DNA of 64,000 bases from a virus. Lineage: Duplodnaviria > Caudoviricetes. Location: the IMG/VR virus record IMGVR_UViG_3300026484_000545, positions 13,832 through 77,831 of that record, one strand, 5' to 3'. How positions within the stretch are numbered: position 1 is the first letter of the stretch; every line of letters begins with the position of its first letter. This document shows positions 9,703-60,188 of the stretch, piece after piece. The notes under the pieces were generated by a model. The model saw only the letters and a list, made by a program, of their open reading frames with translations. It had not been told where the DNA came from and ran no database searches. Both the position numbers and the translations under genes were made by a program.

Positions 9703-9724
9703 CCATCTACCTCCTTTATGCTAA

Positions 9725-13673: not shown

Positions 13674-14024
13674 TTATTTATACTGATAAGTGGTGTTTAC
13701 AAACTCAACCCTTACGCTATAATTGTATTGTTTAAGTACCTCAATTAGATGTTGAATTGCCAAATAATACTCGCGTAACACTTGGTTTAACATCTGTATA
13801 TTATATTCGAACTTAGATACTTCAAAATCCATGTAGCAGAAATATAATTTACTGGAATTAAAGTCGTAGACAACAATCGGATGCATTTTCAGTGGCTTTG
13901 GTTTTGAAAGAAAAATGGTTTCATTTTTACTTGGCAAAGGAGTTTTAACGTAGATTACCTGCGGTTGAGGTTGAGTGCATGCATACAACGCTGTCATACA
14001 TAAAGCTAATACAACACCTCTCAT
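13674..14024 (-). CDS. Outer-membrane spanin (Rz1-like lipoprotein)
   Basis: Signal peptide with lipobox LYAC, Pro-rich segment, overlaps i-spanin stop. Confidence 0.7.
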   Translation of the reverse strand: MRGVVLALCMTALYACTQPQPQVIYVKTPLPSKNETIFLSKPKPLKMHPIVVYDFNSSKLYFCYMDFEVSKFEYNIQMLNQVLREYYLAIQHLIEVLKQYNYSVRVEFVNTTYQYK

Positions 14025-25449: not shown

Positions 25450-25473
25450 ATTAGCATAAAGGAGGAATGAAAT

Positions 25474-25671
25474 ATGCTTCCAATGCAAACTAGAAAAGCT
25501 AGACGTATGAGAAGAGCAGCATTAATCGCATATGCTTTAGCAAAGAAAAATGGAGATAGATTGTATTACGAGGTTATTAAATTAAGAAGAGCATATTTGG
25601 CAAAAAAAGCAAAACTTCTTCAAAAATACTTACCAAAAGCATTAGCTATTTTAAATAGACGTGGAGTTTAA
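25474..25671 (+). CDS. Small, very basic protein (possible virion or DNA-binding protein)
   Basis: R/K/A-rich; AAGGAGG RBS. Confidence 0.65.
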   Translation: MLPMQTRKARRMRRAALIAYALAKKNGDRLYYEVIKLRRAYLAKKAKLLQKYLPKALAILNRRGV

Positions 25672-25696
25672 CTTTAATACATCTAGGTAAAAATCA

Positions 25697-30390: not shown

Positions 30391-30671
30391 TATTCCTCCT
30401 CATTTTTATTTTTATTTTCTTTGTCAGCAACAATAATTCTTACATTTCGTTCTTTATAAGGATATCCTACATCCTCGCATAAATCTTTAGTCGTCTCATA
30501 TCCAAACCTACATATTAACAATTTAAAACCCGGATCTCTAATTTCATATGCAGGATTTCCTTGAAAAATTTGCTCCAGCATTTCGTAAAACGCTTCACGT
30601 ACGGGTTTATCTACATCAAGATACGCTACACGTCTTCCTTCTGAAGTATAGACAGGAAATTCCAACTTCAT
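30390..30671 (-). CDS. Small hypothetical protein
   Basis: AGGAGGTG RBS. Confidence 0.7.
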   Translation of the reverse strand: MKLEFPVYTSEGRRVAYLDVDKPVREAFYEMLEQIFQGNPAYEIRDPGFKLLICRFGYETTKDLCEDVGYPYKERNVRIIVADKENKNKNEEE

Positions 30672-30709
30672 GAGACACCTCCTTTTTTTGTTTTTTAGGA
30701 AATTTTTGA

Positions 30710-30741
30710 GAATTATTTATACAGATTTTAACAAATAAAAA
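30710..30741 (-). promoter_or_regulatory. Candidate phage promoter (TTTTTATTT-N11-TATAAATAATTC)
   Basis: Near-identical to 24595-24626; lies just after a terminator. Confidence 0.65.
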
Positions 30742-30746
30742 ATAGA

Positions 30747-30769
30747 CTCTCCAGCATACTGCTGGAGAG
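30747..30769 (-). terminator. Intrinsic terminator
   Basis: CTCTCCAGCA/TGCTGGAGAG stem followed by T-rich run on the minus strand. Confidence 0.75.
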
Positions 30770-30783
30770 CCTTGTATACAACA

Positions 30784-34225: not shown

Positions 34226-35077
34226 TTATAGGATTACAAAATCTTGCTCGGAGTATAGCAAATCTGAACTAAACTCCTCTTTTTTCAGCAGACATATTTC
34301 TTTATAAGGACAGAAATAACATTTGGTTTTTTCAATAAATGGATGATCGAGATTTGGAATTTGTTTTGTAGCTATTGCTTTTTGAATTTCATTAGCTTTA
34401 TTTATACAATATTCTACATCGGAATCATTAGGATTATACTCAAATGTAAATACTTTGATAGCATCTAGATTTCGCGATATATATAAAAGCTGTCCGTATT
34501 TTACAGGTTTTTGTTGTTCAGTTGCAAGTAAATACATATAGAATTTGAGCTGACGAATATGTTCAATTCGTCCAGTAAAAGACTCGGATTTCAATTCATC
34601 AGCCTTGATTGTTTTGATTTCAATGACGTTATAAGAATTGTCATCAAGAATATTAATTGCATCAATTCTACCTTTTACTTTAAGTTGCTCTGAATAAATT
34701 TCATGCTCAACGTAATCAAATCCAAGCAGTTGTTGTAAAAACTGATGAACAAACTCTCCAACTGCGGTAATAAGTCCCAAGTATGGATAAACGGATACAT
34801 TACACTTATCGTAATTAAAGTACTCAAATAAAATTTGACGAATACATTTGGAAGTTAATGAGGATACGTATATATAGTCTTTATAAAACATTGAATTCTT
34901 TTGCGTAAGTTGAGAATACTCCTTGAGAGCATTTAAAATGTTTTCTTCATCTAATAATTTGGCGACATTTGACTGATGCGAAATATCGACATTTATATTC
35001 GGCTGTATACTAGATTTTTGCGTTTCTTTTTTCAGAATTCCCGCTTGAATATAATCCAGCAAATTTTCTAAATTCAT
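34226..35077 (-). CDS. Cas4-like PD-(D/E)xK exonuclease with Fe-S cysteines
   Basis: CIRQ, GRIDA, EIKT, QLKFY, CYFCPYKEIC; start moved to MNLENL. Confidence 0.85.
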   Translation of the reverse strand: MNLENLLDYIQAGILKKETQKSSIQPNINVDISHQSNVAKLLDEENILNALKEYSQLTQKNSMFYKDYIYVSSLTSKCIRQILFEYFNYDKCNVSVYPYLGLITAVGEFVHQFLQQLLGFDYVEHEIYSEQLKVKGRIDAINILDDNSYNVIEIKTIKADELKSESFTGRIEHIRQLKFYMYLLATEQQKPVKYGQLLYISRNLDAIKVFTFEYNPNDSDVEYCINKANEIQKAIATKQIPNLDHPFIEKTKCYFCPYKEICLLKKEEFSSDLLYSEQDFVIL

Positions 35078-35104
35078 TGCAGTATACTCCCAACTAAACT
35101 TACG

Positions 35105-35142
35105 AAAAAGAAAAGTTAGGCTGGGTTGCAACCCAGCCTAAC
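35105..35142 (-). terminator. Intrinsic terminator
   Basis: GTTAGGCTGGGT/ACCCAGCCTAAC stem then TTTTCTTTTT on the minus strand. Confidence 0.85.
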
Positions 35143-35547
35143 CTATTTTTGTAACTCAGTGTAGTATGCATATTTACGAAATGTTTTAAAGATTTTTGGA
35201 TTTTTTTGCTCACTTAACTGCTTAAATGCTAAATATGCAATATATGCCTTTGTAAGTTTTTCACATAATTTACCTGAACAGAGCTGAATTTTCCTGCTAT
35301 TTGAAGTCTCAATTAAATGCATTAAAGCATCATCTTTACTTAAAACAGTTGCTAGTTTTTCGGCAACTTTATGTTTATGTTTTTTAACAAGAGTTTTCAT
35401 TTCAGATAAAAGTTGATTGACATCTTCATATGTTTCAATATCGCAATGCTCAGCAATTTTTTTAGCAAGTTTTAATCGTAGCTTTGCAAATTTTTGACTT
35501 GAATCAATATACTCAAGTAGTCTCCGAATTATTCGTATCGCGGTCAT
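35143..35547 (-). CDS. Hypothetical basic protein
   Basis: GAGGAG RBS inside the recA 3' end. Confidence 0.6.
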   Translation of the reverse strand: MTAIRIIRRLLEYIDSSQKFAKLRLKLAKKIAEHCDIETYEDVNQLLSEMKTLVKKHKHKVAEKLATVLSKDDALMHLIETSNSRKIQLCSGKLCEKLTKAYIAYLAFKQLSEQKNPKIFKTFRKYAYYTELQK

Positions 35548-36676
35548 CAATATTCTCCTCAAGCAATTGAGTTTCTAGATTTTTCGAAGTTTCAATTTGT
35601 TTACGTAATACTTCTTTTAACGTTTCGACATGTTCATCAAAAACTTCCTTGAATTTTGGATCGTTTTGATAGTACTCATATGCTTTTTTCAAATGGAATT
35701 TTTTAGGATACCCTTCCATAGAATAATAGCCACCCGATGCTCCTACTACCTTTAATACATCTCTCAAATAGAGGAAATTTGTCCAAAATTCACTAAACCC
35801 ATTTGCATAATCTAAAACCATGTAAAATGGATGAAATGGTGCAACGTATTTGTTCTTCAGAAATTTACATTCGGTAATTGCTCCTTGAAATCCAAAACTT
35901 CCGGATTTATCAGGTTTTAATTGAGTATACGGTTTCATAAGTAAAACTGAGAATGCTGCAAATATTTGTGCTTTACCACCAGGTATTGATTTGTTTTCAA
36001 GCCCAGGTAAATTAATCTCGTTTATACCATCAAAAGGCCCAAGCTTTGGTTTCTCTCTAAGCTGATTCACTGCAAGTAGTGTAATATTGTATTGTGCAAG
36101 ATAACCAGTGATAGTTCTAAAGAAAGCTGATAAAATTCTAGCATTCAAACCTAGTGTTTGATTTATATCATTTGTCTTTAATTCTTTTTCACTTGGTGTT
36201 TGAGCAATAGAATCCCATACGATAATAGTTGGGACTTTAAGATAAGAAGGATCCTTTTTAATTTTTTCACGTTTAATTGCAATGATTCCCTCAATAGATT
36301 CCATTACCTTTTCGAGTGTAATACCTGCATCGCAATATAATACTTTATCAAGTTTTACACCAAGTTGTTGAAATCTTTTACGGGACATTGCAGCTTCGGT
36401 GTCAATTATAAGAATTATTGCGTCTTCATATTTTCTTTGAATTGCTGATACGCATTGTAATGCTAAAGTAGATTTACCTGCACCAGGATTTGCTAAAAAC
36501 AAATGGAATTTCCCTAAAGTTATACCACCTCCGCTGTAAATGTCAAATATTGTCAAATTTGTCGGAATTAAAATATCGTCGTCCTCAGCTTTTTTTCGAA
36601 CTGGCAAAGATTTGGATTGTAATAAGTCAACTATTTCATCGTATAAATCTTCAGATTGTTTTCTAGTCTTCGCCAT
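35513..36676 (-). CDS. recA: RecA/UvsX-family recombinase
   Basis: PGAGKST, IDTE, VWDSIA, NQLR, PGGKA, KNK. Confidence 0.92.
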   Translation of the reverse strand: MAKTRKQSEDLYDEIVDLLQSKSLPVRKKAEDDDILIPTNLTIFDIYSGGGITLGKFHLFLANPGAGKSTLALQCVSAIQRKYEDAIILIIDTEAAMSRKRFQQLGVKLDKVLYCDAGITLEKVMESIEGIIAIKREKIKKDPSYLKVPTIIVWDSIAQTPSEKELKTNDINQTLGLNARILSAFFRTITGYLAQYNITLLAVNQLREKPKLGPFDGINEINLPGLENKSIPGGKAQIFAAFSVLLMKPYTQLKPDKSGSFGFQGAITECKFLKNKYVAPFHPFYMVLDYANGFSEFWTNFLYLRDVLKVVGASGGYYSMEGYPKKFHLKKAYEYYQNDPKFKEVFDEHVETLKEVLRKQIETSKNLETQLLEENIDDRDTNNSETT

Positions 36677-37028
36677 CATCACCTCCAATTACTGTAATCG
36701 TTTTTTGTAGTTGAGTTAAAATACGAGGATCAAGTTTGACTTGATCCTCAGATGTATCTAATTTCGATAAAAGCTTGATTTGTTGTAAACGTGTTGATAT
36801 TGCTGTGGATTGTAACTGTCCAAAAATTCTCAATAACTCAACGTACATTTCATTTTGATTCATTACATTCTTACTTTTATATGCATAATAGCTGGTGTCG
36901 CGTTTATCTGACAAAATCTGTTTTTGCAAAGTTTGTAGATTACTTTTAATTGTTGAAAGCATTTCATCAATATCGGATAATCTATTATCCAAATCTTGCA
37001 TATATTCATCTAGTTTTTTATTTTGCAA
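36663..37028 (-). CDS. Coiled-coil hypothetical protein
   Basis: AGGAGG RBS; heptad pattern. Confidence 0.65.
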   Translation of the reverse strand: MQNKKLDEYMQDLDNRLSDIDEMLSTIKSNLQTLQKQILSDKRDTSYYAYKSKNVMNQNEMYVELLRIFGQLQSTAISTRLQQIKLLSKLDTSEDQVKLDPRILTQLQKTITVIGGDDGED

Positions 37029-37042
37029 AAGAATTCCTCCTT

Positions 37043-38551
37043 TTATACGAGATGTTTTTGAATTTGTTTCATGTTAAATAGTTGCTTTCGAATTTGAGGC
37101 AATAAATGCTTTGCTCTAGGTAGAAAATCATAGAAAATTTTAAGCTCGTAGGCTAAAGCTTCAGCACGTACTGTAATTAACTTTTGATTCAAGAGATCCA
37201 AGTATGTATATCTACATACATTTGTGATAAATTTATGCCAATACTGAGTTTCTTTTGTATAGCGTTTAAATAGGTTATTTGGATGCTCATACAATTCATC
37301 TAAAACATTTTTGATTCCGGTTAATTTAACACGATTTTTCAACTGCTGCTTTACATTTGATGTCAATAATCGTGGAATTAATTGTAATTTGGCAAAGCGT
37401 TTAAGAAAATCGCTGTAATAAAGTACTAAAATTGCACTTTCTTTTTTAGTAAACGGCAATGAAACAGTTTCACCAACCGTATAAGTTATTAATGGCGCTA
37501 CAAATGTATCAAAAAACGGTTTGTTAAAGTTATATTGCTCGTAAAATACAGAGGTTTTCATACCATATGTCTTTTCTAAATACTGCATCATATACATCAA
37601 ATATTTATCGAAAGCAACCTTTAGGCAATAGTCAATATTTGCCTTATAAAAATCATCAAGTTCTAAATAAGTTAGCGAAACTTGATATACGTCAGTGTAT
37701 AGGTAATACAGTTGACGACTCAAGAAGTCAATTACAAAACCAATGGGATTATAACTTTTATGCATAATAGGAAGAATGTAAAAAAGAATGTTGTAGAAAA
37801 ATTCAGAAACTACGTAATCTTCGTCTTTAAGCATTACTTCCGATAAAAATTTCCAGATGTTTTCTCTATTTTTCTTAGAACCGTATACTCTTTGTTTTAC
37901 GATCACAAAAAGTTTATCAAAAACTCCATGTTTTCGTAAGGGTTCTAGTAAAGTTTCTGTTATTTTAGTATGCAATCCTGGTGAAAATTTTTTGGAAGTG
38001 TAAAAAATTAAACCATATAACTTCATCATCCAGGCATATTGAATCAATAAAAGACTATCTTCCTCATTTATCTTAACTTTTGCACGAGTATTAGTACGAA
38101 TTTTTAGTTTCACATTTGGTAAATAATAAGTTTCGAGATATTGCTTTAGGAAATTAAACCCTGCAAATAAAATGTCAGAGAAAGTAATTTCGTCAATCCA
38201 AGAGTTTAAATATAGGTAATATGAGTAGAGAAATTGCTTTGCAAAATCAGGAAACTTCTCGAAAAAATCATCCAAATCGCTTAAAATATACGGACGAAAT
38301 TTTCGAGTGATTTTTTGCTCTAATTGAACGGTTACATCTTGTAAAGTTTCGTAGGGATAATTTACTCCATATTCATCGCATGCATACTCATAAATCGACT
38401 TACGTGTAGAATCAGTTACACCAACATGTAATCGATACCCTCTGATATTAAACGAAAACCCCAAAGTCTCATAAAACATAACGAAATACCTCCTTAATTT
38501 GCGTGATACAGTGCGAGTAAAAATATGAGGGGGCTTTTTATGCCCCCTCAT
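37043..38551 (-). CDS. Large helical protein; candidate sigma-like promoter-specificity subunit of the non-virion RNAP
   Basis: 502 aa, all-helical, size similar to phiKZ gp68/AR9 gp226; assignment is inference. Confidence 0.45.
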   Translation of the reverse strand: MRGHKKPPHIFTRTVSRKLRRYFVMFYETLGFSFNIRGYRLHVGVTDSTRKSIYEYACDEYGVNYPYETLQDVTVQLEQKITRKFRPYILSDLDDFFEKFPDFAKQFLYSYYLYLNSWIDEITFSDILFAGFNFLKQYLETYYLPNVKLKIRTNTRAKVKINEEDSLLLIQYAWMMKLYGLIFYTSKKFSPGLHTKITETLLEPLRKHGVFDKLFVIVKQRVYGSKKNRENIWKFLSEVMLKDEDYVVSEFFYNILFYILPIMHKSYNPIGFVIDFLSRQLYYLYTDVYQVSLTYLELDDFYKANIDYCLKVAFDKYLMYMMQYLEKTYGMKTSVFYEQYNFNKPFFDTFVAPLITYTVGETVSLPFTKKESAILVLYYSDFLKRFAKLQLIPRLLTSNVKQQLKNRVKLTGIKNVLDELYEHPNNLFKRYTKETQYWHKFITNVCRYTYLDLLNQKLITVRAEALAYELKIFYDFLPRAKHLLPQIRKQLFNMKQIQKHLV

Positions 38552-38783
38552 ATTTTGCTACAACTTGTTTAATCGTATCCTGAATTTCTTCTAGCGTATT
38601 TGAATCTACAATTCCATATATATTTACACTGATTCCGATGGGATTACGTACAATCTCAAATCGTTGAATCAACTCAAAGTTGATGTGAGGAAACTGTTCT
38701 CGTAAGGTTTGTTGCAATTCCTTAATCAGTTCATCGGAATACAAATCGATATTGCAAACAGACTGATATTCAAACGTACTCAT
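38538..38783 (-). CDS. Small hypothetical protein
   Basis: 81-aa ORF with GAGGG RBS. Confidence 0.65.
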   Translation of the reverse strand: MSTFEYQSVCNIDLYSDELIKELQQTLREQFPHINFELIQRFEIVRNPIGISVNIYGIVDSNTLEEIQDTIKQVVAKYEGA

Positions 38784-38917
38784 TAATCCCTCACGTTTGA
38801 TTGATTGTATGATTAATCTAGCAAGATAATCAAATATGCGCTACCTGTTTTCCTAAACTCGAAATGCAAAATCAGCAAATTCTTCGTAAATGTAAGATAA
38901 TCGAATTTCTACATCTG

Positions 38918-39144
38918 GTGTCTTTCACTTTATGCGTTAAACGAAAAGCTTTTATGTAGCTGATCGATTGCAAAGCGAAAAAGAATCAGATTTGAGTACG
39001 AGGATATCCATCGAGTATTGCATCATACTTTGTGTTGTTCACTTTATGTGAATTTTCTGATTGCAACAATTGATTTGATTACAAGATCGATTAACCATCG
39101 ATTACTCACTAGTGTTTCTGCAATACGTGTTTTCTCTTTATGTG
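38918..39144 (+). repeat. Three degenerate direct repeats GTGT(N)2TTC(A/T)CTTTATG(C/T)G
   Basis: Copies at 38918-38936, 39032-39050, 39127-39144. Confidence 0.7.
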
Positions 39145-39319
39145 ATTTTAAAAGAAAGCTAATTTGCAATAAGGATAGTAAATTGCAACGATACTAGAAA
39201 GAGATATACTCACCACATTTTGTGTTTTGATAAGATGATTTGTTAATCTCATTGCTTTTTGAGTTTACAATAGGTTAATCAAAATTTGAGAAATCAAAAT
39301 CGGATATGTAATGACTCGT

Positions 39320-39362
39320 TATAGCGGATAACGTAGTCCTATCCGCTATATTTTCTATTTTT
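39320..39362 (+). terminator. Plus-strand intrinsic terminator with no plus-strand ORF upstream
   Basis: 11-bp stem TATAGCGGATA/TATCCGCTATA followed by TTTTCTATTTTT. Confidence 0.65.
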
Positions 39363-39870
39363 ACTTAAGATATTTCTATCTCAAATTTTGATTAGTTATA
39401 TTCTTTATTACCTAATTGTCTATTTTCGATAGTTAGGTAATCTCTAGATATGAAATCAACAAAATCTCTTTTAATTCTCACATAAGAATCACAAGTGATA
39501 TCAAACGATAAATCAACCAGGAATTTGCGAATATTTGCATTTATGCGAATATTTGCAAATTCCGATGAACTATCGATGTTATTACTTATTCCCATAAGCA
39601 TCATTAGTAAGCAGATAATCAACAATAGAACGTATGATTCTCTTGTTTGAGATATCTTTAGATATCTCAAATGAGAGAATCTTCTATTATTGCTTAATTT
39701 GCTAAAGGAATCGTAAGTTTGATAGATAAAGCTATAGAATAAGCTATTCTTATTTACGCAGATCACGTTTTCGCACTTGTAATCCAATTGCTTGCATTGG
39801 TTTTCACATCTGGTTGGGATTTGTGAGAACTCCAACATTTGCAAACACCTCCAATGATTTTTTGACGTCA

Positions 39871-40188
39871 GGCTGCACTCGTTTTTAAAAACGCAGGTGC
39901 AACGAGTATTATCTAGTGCAGCCCGGTCCGGTTCCTAAATATATTTAGCCGGATCGCGATCATAATATGTTATTCGGCACGTCATGTTAGACATCTAGGA
40001 AAACTCGTTGAATTTGTTGGTCTTGCAATCTGTTAACCTAAGGTTGTCTGAGTAACGTGAGGTTTTCCGTTAACCAGACGTTTCGATTTCGTGAAATCCA
40101 GCGAAAAACGTTGCAAAAATTGTGGCTTAAAACGCTTGACATTTCAGAGACGGCGTATAAATTTAAAAACAGTGCAGCCCGGTCCGGT
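39871..40188. repeat. AGTGCAGCC motif x3 (18-bp direct repeat plus one inverted copy)
   Basis: AGTGCAGCCCGGTCCGGT at 39916-39933 and 40171-40188; inverted copy at 39871-39879. Confidence 0.85.
40136..40163 (+). promoter_or_regulatory. Sigma70-like promoter
   Basis: TTGACA-16 nt-TAAATT; predicted start ~40170. Confidence 0.45.
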
Positions 40189-40331
40189 AGCAGGTTCTCT
40201 TCGCAAAGAAGAGAACCGAGAAGGAGACAGGGCATCTACGTGTTGATTTTCTGAGTAAATAATCCCCAGAATCTACCAAATTTCAAGAATCCTTCCGAAA
40301 TTTGCTTTATCTTCCATGCAAAGTATAAATC

Positions 40332-42722
40332 GGATTTTAACTTAACAAGTTTTAAAATATTTGAATTTCCAAATAAAAGAATTTGCGTTAATTACACATG
40401 AATATTTTAAAACATATAAAAATGGAGGTATCTAATTGTGAAAGCTGCAGATGTAATGAGAATTTTGCAGATTAGTCGATCAACTCTCTGGCTTTATGTG
40501 AAACAAGGAAAAATCAGAGTCAGAAAGTTGCACAATGGTAGATACGATTATAATGATGAAGATGTCTGGAAACTTGCTGGTAAATGTAAGGAAAGAATGA
40601 ATGTGATTTATGCAAGAGTTTCTACTCATAGCCAAAAAACCAGTTTAGAGAGTCAAGTTAAGCAATGCGAGGAATACTGTAGAGCTAATGGGTTAACTGT
40701 ACATAAAGTTTTTAAAGATATCGGATCTGGTATTGACTTTGAAAAGCGAAAACAGTTTATGCAAATGTTTGAGTTAATCAAGCAATTCAAAGTTGATAAA
40801 GTAATTGTTACATACAAAGATCGCCTATCTCGTATTGGATTTGAATTTTTAAGAAAAGTTTTTGAATCATACGGTACTAAAATAGTAGTCATCAACGAGT
40901 CTAAGTATGATGATGAAAAACTTGCTGAAAAAGAAATCTTTCAAGAATTAATTTCAATTATTCACTCTTTTGCAATGAGACTTTATAGCAATAGAAAAAA
41001 GAGACTGAAATTACAATATTGCGAAGAGGAGCTAAAGCATGAGCTCAAATGTGATAAAAGTACATAAAGCATTGAGGTTAACCTCAAAGTATGCAAATAA
41101 AGACAAAAAACAATTCATTTTTCAAATACTTGATGATGTCAAACGTATGAAAAACCAAATGTCTGAATTTATGTATAATCGAATTCATGAATTAGTTGAA
41201 TGTTTGGAAAATAAAAAGAAGAAAAGTCAATTTATTGGTAATTACAAACAATGGAAACACTCAGTTCTTCCAGCGCATACTATTCAAACTTTATTTTCCA
41301 ATGTTATGACTTGCTATTTGAATCACATCAAGCAACTTATTAATAATGCGAAAAAGAAAATTCGCATTCAATCTAAACTAAATATTTCAAAAAGAAGTCA
41401 ACGTATCTCTATTGAATTTAAGAAATCTCCTTTATGCAGATTAATATCGTATTTATTATCACTATCCAACTTACAAGAATACACTTCTTTTTCACATGTA
41501 GAAGCCAAACTTATAAGCAAAGAGTTGCAAGAATTTTGGCAAAATCTCTCTTTCAAAAAGAAGATGCTTGTTATAAATATTGTCAATAGCAAAATTCAGA
41601 GAATACTAAAAAGAATCAAACGTATTCAATTTACCTCTGGAAGCTTCAGATTAACCGCTTCTGGTTACTCTTACGAAATTGTGAAAGATGAAGATAATTC
41701 ACTTTTCAAATACTTTTTAAAACTAGCTTTCAAATCTAAATCTATCTATCTTCCACTGCTTTTAGAAGATAATCCTAAAAACAAAAGAAGCAAAAAGTAC
41801 TTTCAAAGAATACTTACTGGAAATTTAAAAAAGCAAATCTTTTTGATTGACCGAAGAAATTCTACAAATAGTAAGAAACTCTTTTTTGTAGTAGTAAGCG
41901 AAGAAAATTTGACATTTCATGAATTTGGAAAATTTGTTGGATGCGATGTAAATCTAACATCTGAAAAGTTTCTTACATTCTCCAACGGATTTTCCGTTGA
42001 ATTTGATAAAAGATTTCTCAAAGAATACCTCTCGTTTTTAGAAGAAATCGATAGAAAAGGATATCGTAATCTGACTAAAGATGAAAAGAGAAAACTGAGA
42101 AAATATACAAAAAGAATTGAGTGGTATATTGAGTTTCTCATTGCAAATGTTATAAACAAACTCAAACAACTTGGATATACAGATATAGTACTTGAAGATT
42201 TAGATTTATTTAACAATGGAAAATTTTATGTTAATCTCTTTGGATACAAAATGAAACTCAATAGATTTGTAAGATTTCTCAGACTAACTGGATTAAAGGA
42301 AAAATTCATTCGTATAGCTCATAACCGAGGAATTAGAGTACATTTAACACACTCCGCATATACTTCACAAATGTGTCCTTGTTGCGGACACATTTCTAAA
42401 AAGAATCGAAAAAGTCAATCTGAGTTTGTATGCGAAAAATGCGGTTTCCAATATGATGCTGATAGAATTGCTAGTGTAAATCTTTTACTAAGAATCAAAC
42501 ATAAAGAAATTTGCAAAAAACTTCATACTCAAACAAAGGATACTAAAGAATTCAGAGCAAAACCGATGACCTCTAGAAGTATTTTGTCAATCCTTGAAAA
42601 GTATTTTGATTTTATGACATTGTCTAAATTACTGGTACAGTTGGTAGATGTTCTACCAACTGAGTTTCTTGCTAGATACTTTCGACATAAACGTATGATT
42701 TTATGCGGGTTTCATCATGCGG
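40332..42722 (+). mobile_element. IS607-family insertion sequence (tnpA + tnpB); ends approximate
   Basis: Overlapping serine-recombinase tnpA and tnpB; candidate GG crossover dinucleotides at 40332-40333 and 42721-42722. Confidence 0.85.
40438..41067 (+). CDS. tnpA: IS607 transposase (MerR-like HTH + serine recombinase)
   Basis: N-terminal HTH ISRSTLWLY, YARVS, DIGSG, DRLSR, RLYS. Confidence 0.95.
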   Translation: MKAADVMRILQISRSTLWLYVKQGKIRVRKLHNGRYDYNDEDVWKLAGKCKERMNVIYARVSTHSQKTSLESQVKQCEEYCRANGLTVHKVFKDIGSGIDFEKRKQFMQMFELIKQFKVDKVIVTYKDRLSRIGFEFLRKVFESYGTKIVVINESKYDDEKLAEKEIFQELISIIHSFAMRLYSNRKKRLKLQYCEEELKHELKCDKST

Positions 42723-42733
42723 TTTCCCGATAA
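41039..42733 (+). CDS. tnpB: TnpB RNA-guided nuclease (IS607-associated), RuvC apparently intact
   Basis: GCDVN, VLEDL, YTSQMCPCCG...CEKCG, DADRIASVNL. Confidence 0.93.
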   Translation: MSSNVIKVHKALRLTSKYANKDKKQFIFQILDDVKRMKNQMSEFMYNRIHELVECLENKKKKSQFIGNYKQWKHSVLPAHTIQTLFSNVMTCYLNHIKQLINNAKKKIRIQSKLNISKRSQRISIEFKKSPLCRLISYLLSLSNLQEYTSFSHVEAKLISKELQEFWQNLSFKKKMLVINIVNSKIQRILKRIKRIQFTSGSFRLTASGYSYEIVKDEDNSLFKYFLKLAFKSKSIYLPLLLEDNPKNKRSKKYFQRILTGNLKKQIFLIDRRNSTNSKKLFFVVVSEENLTFHEFGKFVGCDVNLTSEKFLTFSNGFSVEFDKRFLKEYLSFLEEIDRKGYRNLTKDEKRKLRKYTKRIEWYIEFLIANVINKLKQLGYTDIVLEDLDLFNNGKFYVNLFGYKMKLNRFVRFLRLTGLKEKFIRIAHNRGIRVHLTHSAYTSQMCPCCGHISKKNRKSQSEFVCEKCGFQYDADRIASVNLLLRIKHKEICKKLHTQTKDTKEFRAKPMTSRSILSILEKYFDFMTLSKLLVQLVDVLPTEFLARYFRHKRMILCGFHHAVSR

Positions 42734-42819
42734 TTTAATTTTCGAATGTTTTCGAATATTTCAAAATAAAAACCGGATGTCATAGTGATTCAAAAATACT
42801 AAAAGAAGGAGGCGTTATT

Positions 42820-43137
42820 ATGGAGTCTATTCACTGTGAAATCCTCGAAAACCTTTGTAATACTACATGTAATCCTAAACTTGTAGACATTTTTCAGCTT
42901 TTAGAGGAATATCTGAAACCTTTTTCTAAAATCTACTACGGCATATCGCAATCCGAATTTACAATTTACCATCCTAATTTCAAAATCACTATTCGTTGCA
43001 TTTCTGAAGAACCTTTTGAATTTGTCCTCGATTATAACAACAAGGAGTTATTCAGCACTACTGACATAAATAAAGTAATAGAATTTCTGGAGTATACTTT
43101 ATTACCAGACTACGAAATGGGCTTTATCTCAGATTAG
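42820..43137 (+). CDS. Hypothetical acidic protein
   Basis: AAGGAGG RBS. Confidence 0.7.
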   Translation: MESIHCEILENLCNTTCNPKLVDIFQLLEEYLKPFSKIYYGISQSEFTIYHPNFKITIRCISEEPFEFVLDYNNKELFSTTDINKVIEFLEYTLLPDYEMGFISD

Positions 43138-43218
43138 TCAATTTGCATAACATAATAATGCATCACTGAGAGCTAAGATGTATTGCTAAACCTTTGAATA
43201 GCAAGGAGGATTAAGAAA

Positions 43219-44769
43219 ATGAATAAGTATCACCAGATTATCCACGAGTTTATTAAAAACACAGATATTGCAAGAAATAATGCAAATTTCATCAGATCTC
43301 TCCCAGCTCTTGAACATGTAGTTGTCGGCGAGGTTATGAAAGACTATCTCTTTAATCAAATTTACAAAGGGTTACCAGTTAGAGAGCATCACGAAACTGG
43401 TTGGACTTACCATCATCAAGCATTTAAATTATCACCTTACTGTATTGGACTCTCTGCAAAAGATGTTGCATTTTATGGTTTGAAATCTAATGCTAAAAAT
43501 GCTAGAAATGGTAAACCTCCAAAACGTCTCGAAACTCTTTTTATGCAATGTGCAAATTTAATTTGTTTGATTGCACAAGAAGTATCAGGTGCAACTTCAT
43601 TAAATGACATTAGTACAGTTGCTGCAGGGTATTTATGGTATCTTGAAACAAATGGAATTAAAACGTACACAGATTACGAGTTGATTAATATCTGGCAAGA
43701 ATTTCTTTTCAACATAAATCTTCCATTTCGCTCAGGCAACTCTCCATTTAGTAATATAACTCTTGAGTTTGGAAAACCAAATAAAATTCTCGCAAAACAC
43801 AATGTAATTTACGCTGGAAAATTACTTGATAAGACTTATTCTGAAATTCCAAGTGAGTATTTTGATAGAATTAACGATGCATTTATTGAGGCAATGAAAA
43901 TTGGTGATGGAAATGGAAATCCGTTTACATTTCCACTAATTACAGTAAATATCACAGAAGATTTTGATAGAAATAATCCAATTTGGAAAAAGCTACTTAG
44001 AGAATCAGAGTACTTCGGTGGATTTTATGTGCAAAACTATCTCAAAAAGCCATTTCTTGAATCTGAATATAAAAAATACAATCCAAATATGAGACCGTTT
44101 GATGAAGACATGATATATAGTAATTGTTGTAGAATGCTATTTAATGTCTCCACAGTTGAAGCAGTTACAGGAAGTAATCCTTTTCACTCTGGAGCAGGAG
44201 TTGGTGGAATAGGTGTATATGCAATAAACTTAAACAGACTCCTATTTCTTGCAAAAGACAATTTCGAGCTTTTGAAGGAGATGCTTTCCTATTTAATGGA
44301 AATTGGAGCAAAAGCATTACAGAGAAAAAGAAAATGGATTATGCAACACTATGAAGACTTATATCCATATCTTTCATTTTATCAAAGAACAGATAAATCC
44401 CTCTTCAATATCTTTTCAATTGTAGGTGGACATGAAGGTATGGTTAATGCAGGATTCAAAGGAGGGCTTGCAAATCCTCAGGCAAAAGAATACGCTCACA
44501 AAATCTTACAATTCATTCATGAAAAACTTAATGAATTCATGGAAAGAGATAAGGTTTTATATTCACTTGAATATGCTCCTTCAGAAAATGCCGCAGTAAA
44601 ACTTGCACAAAAAGATTTACAATTTGCATATCAAATTGCTCAACTTATAAACAACAATCAAAAGTGTACTCTATTTCATGATGAAAAACTCAATGACTTT
44701 GTAAATAGAGCAATAGAAATCCATGGTGAAAAAATATTTGACATACCAGAGGGAGTAGTGCTAGAATGA
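43219..44769 (+). CDS. nrdD: Anaerobic (class III) ribonucleotide reductase, N-terminal subunit
   Basis: NAN, SPYC, QEVSGA, PFTFP, finger loop SNCCR, INLNR, EYAPSE; no glycyl-radical loop. Confidence 0.92.
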   Translation: MNKYHQIIHEFIKNTDIARNNANFIRSLPALEHVVVGEVMKDYLFNQIYKGLPVREHHETGWTYHHQAFKLSPYCIGLSAKDVAFYGLKSNAKNARNGKPPKRLETLFMQCANLICLIAQEVSGATSLNDISTVAAGYLWYLETNGIKTYTDYELINIWQEFLFNINLPFRSGNSPFSNITLEFGKPNKILAKHNVIYAGKLLDKTYSEIPSEYFDRINDAFIEAMKIGDGNGNPFTFPLITVNITEDFDRNNPIWKKLLRESEYFGGFYVQNYLKKPFLESEYKKYNPNMRPFDEDMIYSNCCRMLFNVSTVEAVTGSNPFHSGAGVGGIGVYAINLNRLLFLAKDNFELLKEMLSYLMEIGAKALQRKRKWIMQHYEDLYPYLSFYQRTDKSLFNIFSIVGGHEGMVNAGFKGGLANPQAKEYAHKILQFIHEKLNEFMERDKVLYSLEYAPSENAAVKLAQKDLQFAYQIAQLINNNQKCTLFHDEKLNDFVNRAIEIHGEKIFDIPEGVVLE

Positions 44770-59885: not shown

Positions 59886-59937
59886 CTTATTTTACTCCTT
59901 TTGATTGATAATTAAATTCTTTTTGAGGCTTTAAAAA

Positions 59938-60180
59938 ATGCTTACAAATTATGGAGCTTTACAGTATTTCTATGGCAAAAATTTTGAAAAGACGTGTTTT
60001 TCAGGAATAGCATGTCCAATATGCGGCTGTCCTGATATAATATTTTTAGGTAGAGTTCCTTTAATGGGATTTCGTTTTAAATGTCAGAAATGTAAAAACG
60101 AATTTGCAGTTAGACTTGCAATAATTCGTTCTGATAAAAAGCGTAGGTCTTTAAAAACTGACTATAATGCTGAGGGGTAG
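59938..60180 (+). CDS. Zn-ribbon protein
   Basis: CPICG...CQKC. Confidence 0.6.
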   Translation: MLTNYGALQYFYGKNFEKTCFSGIACPICGCPDIIFLGRVPLMGFRFKCQKCKNEFAVRLAIIRSDKKRRSLKTDYNAEG

Positions 60181-60188
60181 TAGATAAA

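Follow-up and report, generated by a model that had tools for sequence, protein, structure and literature searches.

ROOL and GOLLD, two families of large non-coding RNA, are found in phage and prophage contexts, where they occupy gene-free stretches and have strong predicted structure. In the promoter early stem-loop (PeSL) cassettes of T4-type phages, stem-loops go together with orphan open reading frames (ORFans) in a plastic part of a virulent phage's large genome; these are repeated promoter-plus-terminator cassettes, and they flank the ORFans (PMC2839356). The subject here is a row of three hairpins in a 64,000-nucleotide window of DNA from an uncultured jumbo phage of deep-sea hydrothermal vents, comprising bases 13832–77831 of a 77,831-base IMG/VR virus contig (record IMGVR_UViG_3300026484_000545) which is rated 27% complete and has 31.8% G+C; all positions given below are those of the window. 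The hairpins differ from ROOL and GOLLD in that no covariance model matches here and that three simple hairpins, equally strong on both strands, dominate the folding. They differ from the PeSL cassettes in being single-copy, in lying inside an open reading frame (ORF) and in having no adjacent promoter.

The structure is real, statistically exceptional and confined to a single lineage, whilst the bold reading of the locus as a large RNA is mostly unsupported. Tentatively, and with a good deal of doubt, the hairpins are read here as part of a plus-strand RNA, in which they would form a local array running antisense to a young ORFan. Two other readings come close behind, namely sites that act at the DNA level and by-products of duplication. 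To our knowledge, the control regions and origins of jumbo phages with their own multisubunit RNA polymerases are almost unmapped.

A row of three hairpins

The stems under discussion are as follows.

39520–39563, plus strand: hairpin 1, with 21-nt arms, a TT centre and two mismatches, both G·T on the plus strand.
39636–39681, plus strand: hairpin 2, with 22-nt arms, a TT centre and two adjacent mismatches (tandem T·G/G·T on the plus strand).
39407–39441, plus strand: hairpin 3, newly found, with a 14-bp stem, a 7-nt loop and two mismatches, both G·T on the plus strand.
39320–39362, plus strand: orphan intrinsic-terminator-like hairpin, a perfect 11-bp stem (39320–39350) followed by TTTTCTATTTTT, about 45 nt upstream of hairpin 3.
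39788–39846, no strand assigned: a further stem proposed earlier, with no stability beyond shuffles and excluded from the element.

Hairpins 1 to 3 are AT-rich quasi-palindromes which follow one another over about 300 nt in all. The preliminary description of this DNA had located the first two correctly, with the arm lengths and TT centres listed above, and all four of their mismatches are indeed G·T on the plus strand. Its third stem did not hold up: the folding z-score is -1.66 on the plus strand and -1.94 on the minus strand, and 14 and 5 of 200 shuffled sequences, respectively, fold as well. The extension which it proposed for hairpin 2, taken here as 39608–39700, exists, but it contains a U·C at 39619 and a C·A at 39623 on the plus strand, so the statement that the stems depart from pairing only by G·U is true of the core stems alone. 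In its bulged, extended form (39608–39700) hairpin 2 is of nearly equal stability on the two strands, at -35.9 (plus) versus -34.3 (minus) kcal/mol.

The core stems are rare by several measures. Among the 14 inverted repeats with stems of at least 14 and no more than two mismatches found in the whole 77,831-base contig, hairpins 1 and 2 are the two longest; the other 12 are mostly GC-rich stems beside runs of T or A, and are terminator-like. A terminator scan of 38500–40500 returned hairpin 2 as its only terminator-like match (20 pairs, five of them G-C, with the T-rich tail TTCTATTATT). Hairpins 1 and 3 have no T tail. Compared with the other terminator-like stems of the contig, those of the hairpins have a higher AT content and are far longer. 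Related loci were reached through the RecA-like protein, whose 25-sequence alignment led to 79 loci; 43 of these were scanned (850,095 bases) and the other 36, at about 25–27% identity, were left out. The 43 jumbo-phage loci contain 20 repeats of at least 18 bp, about one per 42 kb, none of them syntenic with the hairpins described here and none paired this close.

The hairpins are also single-copy. Their motifs occur nowhere else in the 77.8-kb contig, which matches only itself, and no other contig of three metagenome runs covers 39496–39687 at 80% likeness or more. Degenerate DNA patterns of hairpins 1 and 2 gave no matches in viral contigs and none in metagenome contigs. The many genomic copies that would mark a repeated palindromic element of the MITE (miniature inverted-repeat transposable element), REP (repetitive extragenic palindrome) or PeSL type were thus not found.

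As RNA, hairpin 1 folds at -25.7 (plus) versus -17.9 (minus) kcal/mol and hairpin 2 at -27.9 versus -23.4 kcal/mol, each beating 200 of 200 shuffles on both strands. Hairpin 3 folds at -14.8 versus -7.9 kcal/mol as RNA and shows no strand difference as DNA. Over the 351-nt window 39500–39850 the folding z-score is -8.1 on the plus strand and -6.2 on the minus strand, to be set against 40 windows of the same contig, taken on both strands, in which the mean was about -0.2, the standard deviation (sd) about 1.2 and the minimum -3.1.

Strand-biased mismatches

One pointer to a plus-strand molecule is the nature of the mismatches. A census of the whole contig for inverted repeats with at least 10 Watson–Crick pairs, no more than two internal mismatches and loops of 2–12 nt returned 58 repeats. 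In the three strong repeats within 38784–39870 all six internal mismatches are G·T on the plus strand, with no transversions; in the remaining repeats there are 6 G·T, 25 A·C and 46 transversion-type mismatches. For G·T versus A·C, the counts of 6:0 here and 6:25 elsewhere correspond to a hypergeometric P of about 4 × 10^-4, on the assumption that mismatches are independent. The excess of A·C elsewhere cannot be used to calibrate the transcribed strand, because it does not simply follow gene strand.

The G·T pairs of hairpins 1, 2 and 3 are worth 7.8, 4.5 and 6.9 kcal/mol, respectively, as RNA, and 4.6, 1.2 and 0.1 kcal/mol as DNA. RNA therefore fits better than single-stranded DNA, since the gain in stability is much larger as RNA. 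A mere weakening of hairpins in a minus-strand mRNA would admit transversions, of which none is seen, and this too favours a plus-strand RNA. The strand bias which was originally claimed for the core stems has therefore stood, whereas the accompanying claim, that selection acts on a plus-strand molecule rather than on the ORF on the other strand, is supported only in part.

Variation between strains can be followed in three DNA runs labelled as hydrothermal-vent metagenomes, in which the stretch is present almost letter for letter. Three contigs from the three runs span it, with one, three and four differences in 1901 nt (38600–40500 compared). All seven distinct differences of these phage-length contigs are transitions and all lie in 38784–40437. 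Five further differences, at 40449–40470, belong to short contigs of another copy of the neighbouring insertion sequence (IS). Of the single-nucleotide polymorphisms (SNPs) in 39392–39870, a G>A change at 39529 turns a G·T of hairpin 1 into A-T, and the other two lie at positions unpaired in the minimum-energy fold of the plus strand (probability of being unpaired 0.99 and 0.70). These SNPs, which at n = 3 are far too few for a test, are compatible with kept pairing. Matches of other contigs to 39225–39386 (36–37 nt with five or six differences) were judged to be due to chance or low complexity.

The antisense open reading frame

All three hairpins lie within an ORF on the opposite strand.

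39392–39838, minus strand: ORF of 148 amino acids (aa), with its ATG at 39838 in a frame open for 180 codons; contains hairpins 1 to 3.
39848–39852, minus strand: Shine–Dalgarno sequence GGAGG, 9 nt upstream of the ATG.

The ORF had been set aside too quickly in the preliminary description, given its 180 open codons and its GGAGG, 9 nt from the ATG. When the gap was simulated 2000 times with a first-order Markov model, a frame of at least 150 open codons arose with P = 0.0045, and a GGAGG at 9 nt is the arrangement found in most of the 64 listed genes of the window. The protein has also been predicted by gene callers, its sequence being present in the database, and its product would contain one hydrophobic helix, VLLLIICLLMMLMGI.

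Of the marks of a coding gene, then, the ORF has an open frame, a start codon and a ribosome-binding site (RBS); it lacks the codon usage of the genome, homologues and signs of purifying selection. Its codon score is -0.013, compared with 0.269 +/- 0.081 (minimum 0.093) for 59 genes, and lies within the spread of scores for wrong frames (-0.055 +/- 0.116). Pieces of 149 codons were drawn at random from real genes 4000 times, those long enough being scored, and not one was as low. Searches for homologues produced only one sub-threshold match in Pfam, none in PHROGs or the ESM Atlas, and only the protein itself among 1.84 billion representatives. Structure predictions are of low confidence: AlphaFold2 gave a pLDDT (predicted local distance difference test) of 43.9, and the ESM Atlas a pLDDT of 0.42 with no related cluster. 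All three strain SNPs in the ORF are nonsynonymous (R132K, R104C and Y20C), as are 63% of the possible transitions, and they are too few for a firm ratio of nonsynonymous to synonymous substitution (dN/dS). Conservation of the protein with dN/dS below 1, which was to have counted against a structured plus-strand molecule, is thus not seen, there being three nonsynonymous SNPs out of three and no homologue; the ORF is nonetheless not dismissible. Altogether it resembles an ORFan which is translated, yet either young or weakly constrained.

A proposed plus-strand hairpin array

Plus-strand RNA hairpins are favoured because the mismatches are strand-biased and free of transversions and because an orphan terminator lies upstream. 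This terminator, at 39320–39362, has no plus-strand ORF before it; the fact was counted in favour of a plus-strand transcript, and the terminator suggests transcription on the plus strand to its left. Also counted in favour were the T-rich tail of hairpin 2, the strain SNPs, which leave plus-strand pairing intact, and the apparent lack of constraint on the ORF. Short palindromic motifs, duplicated locally in tandem or inverted form, may have given rise to the repeats, which would now be kept as hairpins of the putative plus-strand transcript. Starting from the region of repeats and promoters at 38.9–39.2 kb, this transcript would read through the orphan terminator and run antisense to the young ORFan, whose expression it would hold down. 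The hairpins themselves could serve as stable 3'-end, stop or double-strand-RNase-type structures. The element would then be a local hairpin array rather than an ornate RNA of 1.5 kb.

A number of results weigh against the plus-strand array. The folding excess of 38790–40330 shows no strand preference, amounting to about -87 kcal/mol on the plus strand and -92 kcal/mol on the minus strand, and the difference between the strands within the 351-nt window (-7.7 kcal/mol) lies inside the background (mean -3.1, sd 9.9). Folding of the flanks gives z-scores of -3.2 and -3.9 on one side and -3.0 and -3.0 on the other (plus and minus strand, respectively). The mismatches of hairpin 1 are not independent, since that hairpin is a direct repeat of one 14-mer and its two G·T pairs represent one departure from symmetry in the repeated unit; the independent events may number only three. 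If one event is counted per hairpin, P rises to about 0.007 to 0.125, the latter being the value under a symmetric null. No sigma-70-like plus-strand promoter lies between 39362 and 39407, and the transcript therefore needs to read through the terminator. The nested palindromes of the arms, with their period of about 10 bp, are not needed by an RNA hairpin and so fit DNA sites or by-products of duplication. Chance is a very unlikely source of an ORF that combines 180 open codons with a correctly spaced GGAGG, so that the minus strand of the region is probably read too. Finally, no relative that could show covariation was found in any collection searched.

A bolder version of the hairpin array, as a lineage-specific plus-strand RNA of about 300 nt, or more if the flanking structured parts belong to it, which is under G·U-preserving selection and acts as an antisense silencer or processing hub, or alternatively as a set of strand-specific hairpins marking an origin, must be considered improbable. 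The locus also carries some general cautions: palindromes yield extreme folding scores on both strands, mismatches confined to G·U can come from very few events, and an antisense ORF with a good RBS deserves to be weighed.

Competing explanations

Somewhat unlikely is a DNA-level cis element, consisting of arrays of dyad-symmetric protein-binding sites phased at about one helical turn (operators, an origin or an unwinding region), for which the hairpins would be a side effect and the G·T bias chance. The anatomy of the arms speaks for it. Hairpin 1 consists of two direct copies, 18 nt apart, of the quasi-palindromic 14-mer TGCGAATATTTGCA (TGCG-AATATT-TGCA), laid out as GGAATT, 14-mer, TTTA, 14-mer, AATTCC, and Tandem Repeats Finder reports four copies of a 10-nt unit. 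The inner arms of hairpin 2 contain the perfect palindrome AGATATCT twice, 10 nt apart. Symmetry within the arms exceeds that of shuffled arms, with P = 0.012 for the 14-nt palindrome of hairpin 1 (one mismatch) and P = 0.035 for the perfect 8-nt palindrome of hairpin 2, and a copy of AATATTTGCAAA matching at 11 of 12 positions lies over the start region of the 148-aa ORF. Since both hairpins are built of short palindromic sub-repeats with a period of about 10 bp, an origin at the DNA level is suggested, whether by tandem or inverted duplication or as phased double-stranded binding sites. The two hairpins share the central T-TT-A, their arm sequences being otherwise unrelated.

The position of the sites likewise agrees with an origin, with tandem quasi-palindromic sites at a switch of both skew and gene orientation. 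The cumulative GC-skew minimum of the whole 77.8-kb contig falls at 38170–39170; it is confounded with gene orientation, and could mark a replication origin or simply be an effect of that orientation. Genes for a RecA/UvsX-like protein, a Cas4-like exonuclease and NrdD flank the region, and the equal folding excess on both strands counts in favour as well. Against such a DNA element, random mismatch types would be expected, and six of six G·T on one strand has a P of about 0.001 to 0.04. Beside the region neither a DNA-binding protein nor an initiator is recognised, the motifs have no further copy in the contig, and the ORF enclosing the sites looks translated.

It is about equally doubtful that there is no dedicated function at all, in which case a young, fast-evolving ORFan would sit in a hyperplastic region and the palindromes would be by-products of slippage or fold-back (template-switch) duplication. 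The G·T bias would then stem from chance, from mutation bias or from selection for a translatable mRNA. The ORF, which has an open frame and a canonical RBS but shows neither codon adaptation nor a homologue and whose SNPs are all nonsynonymous, agrees with this, as do the tandem and nested arrangement of the repeats, the orphan character of the whole region and the confinement of all seven transitions between the phage-length contigs to 38784–40437. In the mRNA of the ORF the mismatches are A·C, at a cost to hairpin stability of 4.5 to 7.8 kcal/mol. Transversions should, however, also result from neutral decay or from selection against structure, and the six mismatches include none. Two such repeats within 117 nt, plus a third, in one large control region would also have to be a coincidence, when in the 850 kb of 43 jumbo-phage loci repeats of at least 18 bp occur about once per 42 kb and are never paired so close.

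Far less likely is the single structured plus-strand non-coding RNA of about 1.5 kb, comparable with ROOL or GOLLD and covering 38790–40330, which had been put forward in the preliminary description. Folding of these 1541 nt gave -424.9 kcal/mol on the plus strand, compared with -337.5 +/- 5.8 kcal/mol for 16 shuffles (z -15), and every sub-window has a z-score of -3 or lower; the region is also gene-poor within a densely packed genome. The minus strand, however, gave -405.8 compared with -314.0 +/- 8.9 kcal/mol (16 shuffles, z -10), so that the proposed folding check yielded the excess over shuffles without the preference for the plus strand. About half of the excess over the 1.5 kb is due to the three local hairpins. 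A plus-strand terminator stands mid-way, at 39320–39362, two sigma-70-like plus-strand promoters lie inside (39884–39912 and 40136–40163), and several units are consequently more plausible than one RNA of 1.5 kb; the minus-strand ORF with its RBS lies inside as well.

Comparison with described RNA families gave no help to the large RNA. ROOL, GOLLD and 4227 other Rfam families returned no match at the gathering score in the 64-kb window, in accordance with the earlier remark that there was no sign of either of the two. With the expectation value (E) relaxed to 5 over 38500–43300, the hairpins attracted only sub-threshold microRNA-precursor models (18.5–25.9 bits, where the cut-offs are 70–110). 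ARAGORN found no tRNA or tmRNA.

The least probable reading makes each hairpin a serine-recombinase crossover site, with the two sites in direct orientation: inverted half-sites of 21–22 bp do surround a non-palindromic 2-bp TT centre with a common TTTA core, much as one account of serine recombinases describes inverted half-sites around a central 2-bp overlap, and a serine recombinase gene lies 760 bp away, but the only recombinase in the contig (27% of the genome) is an IS607-type TnpA, of a family which that source describes as joining its ends through a GG overlap with little target specificity (PMC4058570), the arms of hairpins 1 and 2 are unrelated in sequence, and contigs of four runs, which can miss rare forms, contain no deletion or inversion joints, leaving the half-site layout with neither a cognate recombinase nor recombinant products. 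A link between hairpin 1 and the IS607-type element was also considered and rejected, the shared 8-mers with the presumed IS ends not being significant against random segments (P = 0.047 on the left and 0.11 on the right).

The surrounding control region

38784–40331, no strand assigned: gene-poor divergent control region of 1.55 kb holding the hairpins, between the leftward gene block (end at 38783) and the inferred left edge of the IS607-type insertion.

The genome is otherwise densely packed. The hairpins lie in its one large gene-poor gap, 38784–40437, which is also where the main strand switch falls: almost every gene left of 38783 is on the minus strand, and beyond 40438 the plus strand carries most of them. 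AT skew changes sign near 40 kb, and this change and the GC-skew minimum coincide with the passage from a minus-strand block of about 53 kb to mostly plus-strand genes. The neighbouring genes, as identified in the window, include the Cas4-like exonuclease (34226–35131), the RecA/UvsX-like protein (35513–36688) and NrdD (43219–44769), together with an IS607-type pair of a serine recombinase (40438–41067) and TnpB (41039–42733).

The orphan character of the region extends to its neighbours. A blastn search of 50,697 phage records found no match to the region; searches for related loci by way of the 502-aa neighbour, the 148-aa ORF and NrdD found no relatives; and the orphan region, neighbouring ORFs of 502, 81 and 121 aa included, is without homologues, the 502-aa protein matching only its own cluster. 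The nearest RecA-like proteins are at most 45% identical. In four related contigs a long hairpin (stems of 18–27 bp, differing in sequence) lies at the 5' end of an ORF of about 300 aa, two genes after the RecA-like gene (L004, 12043–12092; L006, 4140–4184; L028, 12349–12389; L031, 12214–12273). In the phage described here an 18-bp GC-rich palindrome at 35111–35146 lies at the start of the Cas4-like exonuclease gene, in the same relative position. This recurrent placement may reflect a conserved hairpin with a regulatory or terminator role.

The IS607-type element, composed of the TnpA serine recombinase and a 564-aa TnpB, seemingly extends over 40331–42776, about 2.44 kb, with boundaries placed by the similarity of the presumed junctions, AAATCGGAT (GG at 40332–40333) and AAACCGGAT (GG at 42775–42776). 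If these edges are right, insertion took place just downstream of a GTATAAAT promoter-like box which, but for the element, would precede the gene at 42820 by about 50 nt. A related tnpA 5' end (11–13 differences in 81 nt) is present in other contigs from the same metagenomes.

Several short motifs recur in the contig. The 14-nt motif TGYATAAATAATTC occurs with 0–2 mismatches on the minus strand at 13684, 21581, 24608 and 30723, upstream of start codons, at a distance of about 15 nt at 13684 and 35–50 nt at the other three sites; a T-rich block, TTTTTATYT, precedes it by about 10 nt in three of the four cases. TGYATAAATAATTC is probably a class of phage promoter. GTATAAAT also has two plus-strand occurrences, at positions 40155 and 40323; both precede the IS and the rightward genes. 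Within 38906–39240 a motif of about 25 nt, GTGTnnTTCACTTTATGTGA, is found in three dispersed copies and a partial fourth, all in the same orientation and 114 and 94 nt apart, upstream of the orphan terminator at 39320–39362. These copies could be tandem promoters or binding sites. GTGTnnTTCACTTTATGTGA is absent from the other intergenic regions save for one partial CTTTATG at 9714, and a role as a general promoter was rejected.

To the right of the hairpins lies an island richer in G+C (39863–40260, about 42% as against 32%), in which AGTGCAGCCCGGTCCGGT, 18 nt long, is directly repeated without a mismatch at 39915 and 40171. One of the two sigma-70-like promoter matches stands just upstream of each copy, the second match (40136–40163) having TTGACA and a 16-nt spacer, and the inverse of the first half of AGTGCAGCCCGGTCCGGT is found at 39871–39879. 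The island has no Rfam match and no relatives. The 18-mer itself had no matches in viral contigs and 24 in genome contigs of unrelated taxa, where about 17 are expected by chance. TTGCAA is modestly enriched, with 10 occurrences in 1.75 kb versus about 2.8 expected; a general excess of short palindromes in the region was rejected, z-scores being 1.1, 1.8 and 0.1 for 6-, 8- and 10-mers. Elsewhere, short ORFs with a GGAGG-type RBS are apparently present in 25450–25696, 30391–30783 and 59886–60188, gaps in the list of ORFs of 100 aa, examples being a minus-strand ORF starting near 30710 and a plus-strand ORF in 59886–60188 with two Cys-x-x-Cys pairs.

Comparison with known systems

Should the bolder version of the hairpin array be borne out, whether as an RNA standing at the head of two divergent gene blocks or as the mark of an origin, it would be a cis element of a kind unmapped in this group of jumbo phages. 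If the hairpins act as strand-specific structures, in RNA or in DNA, they would show where the regulatory centre lies in the genome of a jumbo phage with its own multisubunit RNA polymerases, and the locus would offer a clean case of an RNA structure and a young ORF on the same DNA. 

Three groups of described elements are instructive here. The hairpins of primosome-assembly and complementary-strand origins in small single-stranded DNA phages likewise pair fully on one strand only, through G·T wobble. In contrast to these, the present host of the hairpins is a double-stranded DNA jumbo phage, and as DNA the G·T pairs add little (0.1 to 4.6 kcal/mol). Origins and operator arrays of the lambda type, as generally described, share with this locus tandem quasi-palindromic sites inside an ORF (gene O in lambda), AT-rich sequence, a switch of strand and skew, and flanking genes of replication and recombination. 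They differ in that no initiator or repressor is recognised here, that each motif has two copies, and that a strand-biased G·T would be unexpected for double-stranded recognition.

The third group comprises cis-antisense RNAs and the stable hairpins at which phage transcripts end or are processed, such as the RNase III-type hairpins familiar from lambda and T7. In these, by contrast, palindromic arms are not needed, whilst the stems considered here are AT-rich, close with 4-nt loops and have palindromic arms. The parallels are nevertheless several: in a phage control region, long and near-perfect stems spanning some two helical turns, with pairing on one strand which is kept through G·U, and an element which overlaps a gene of the other strand.

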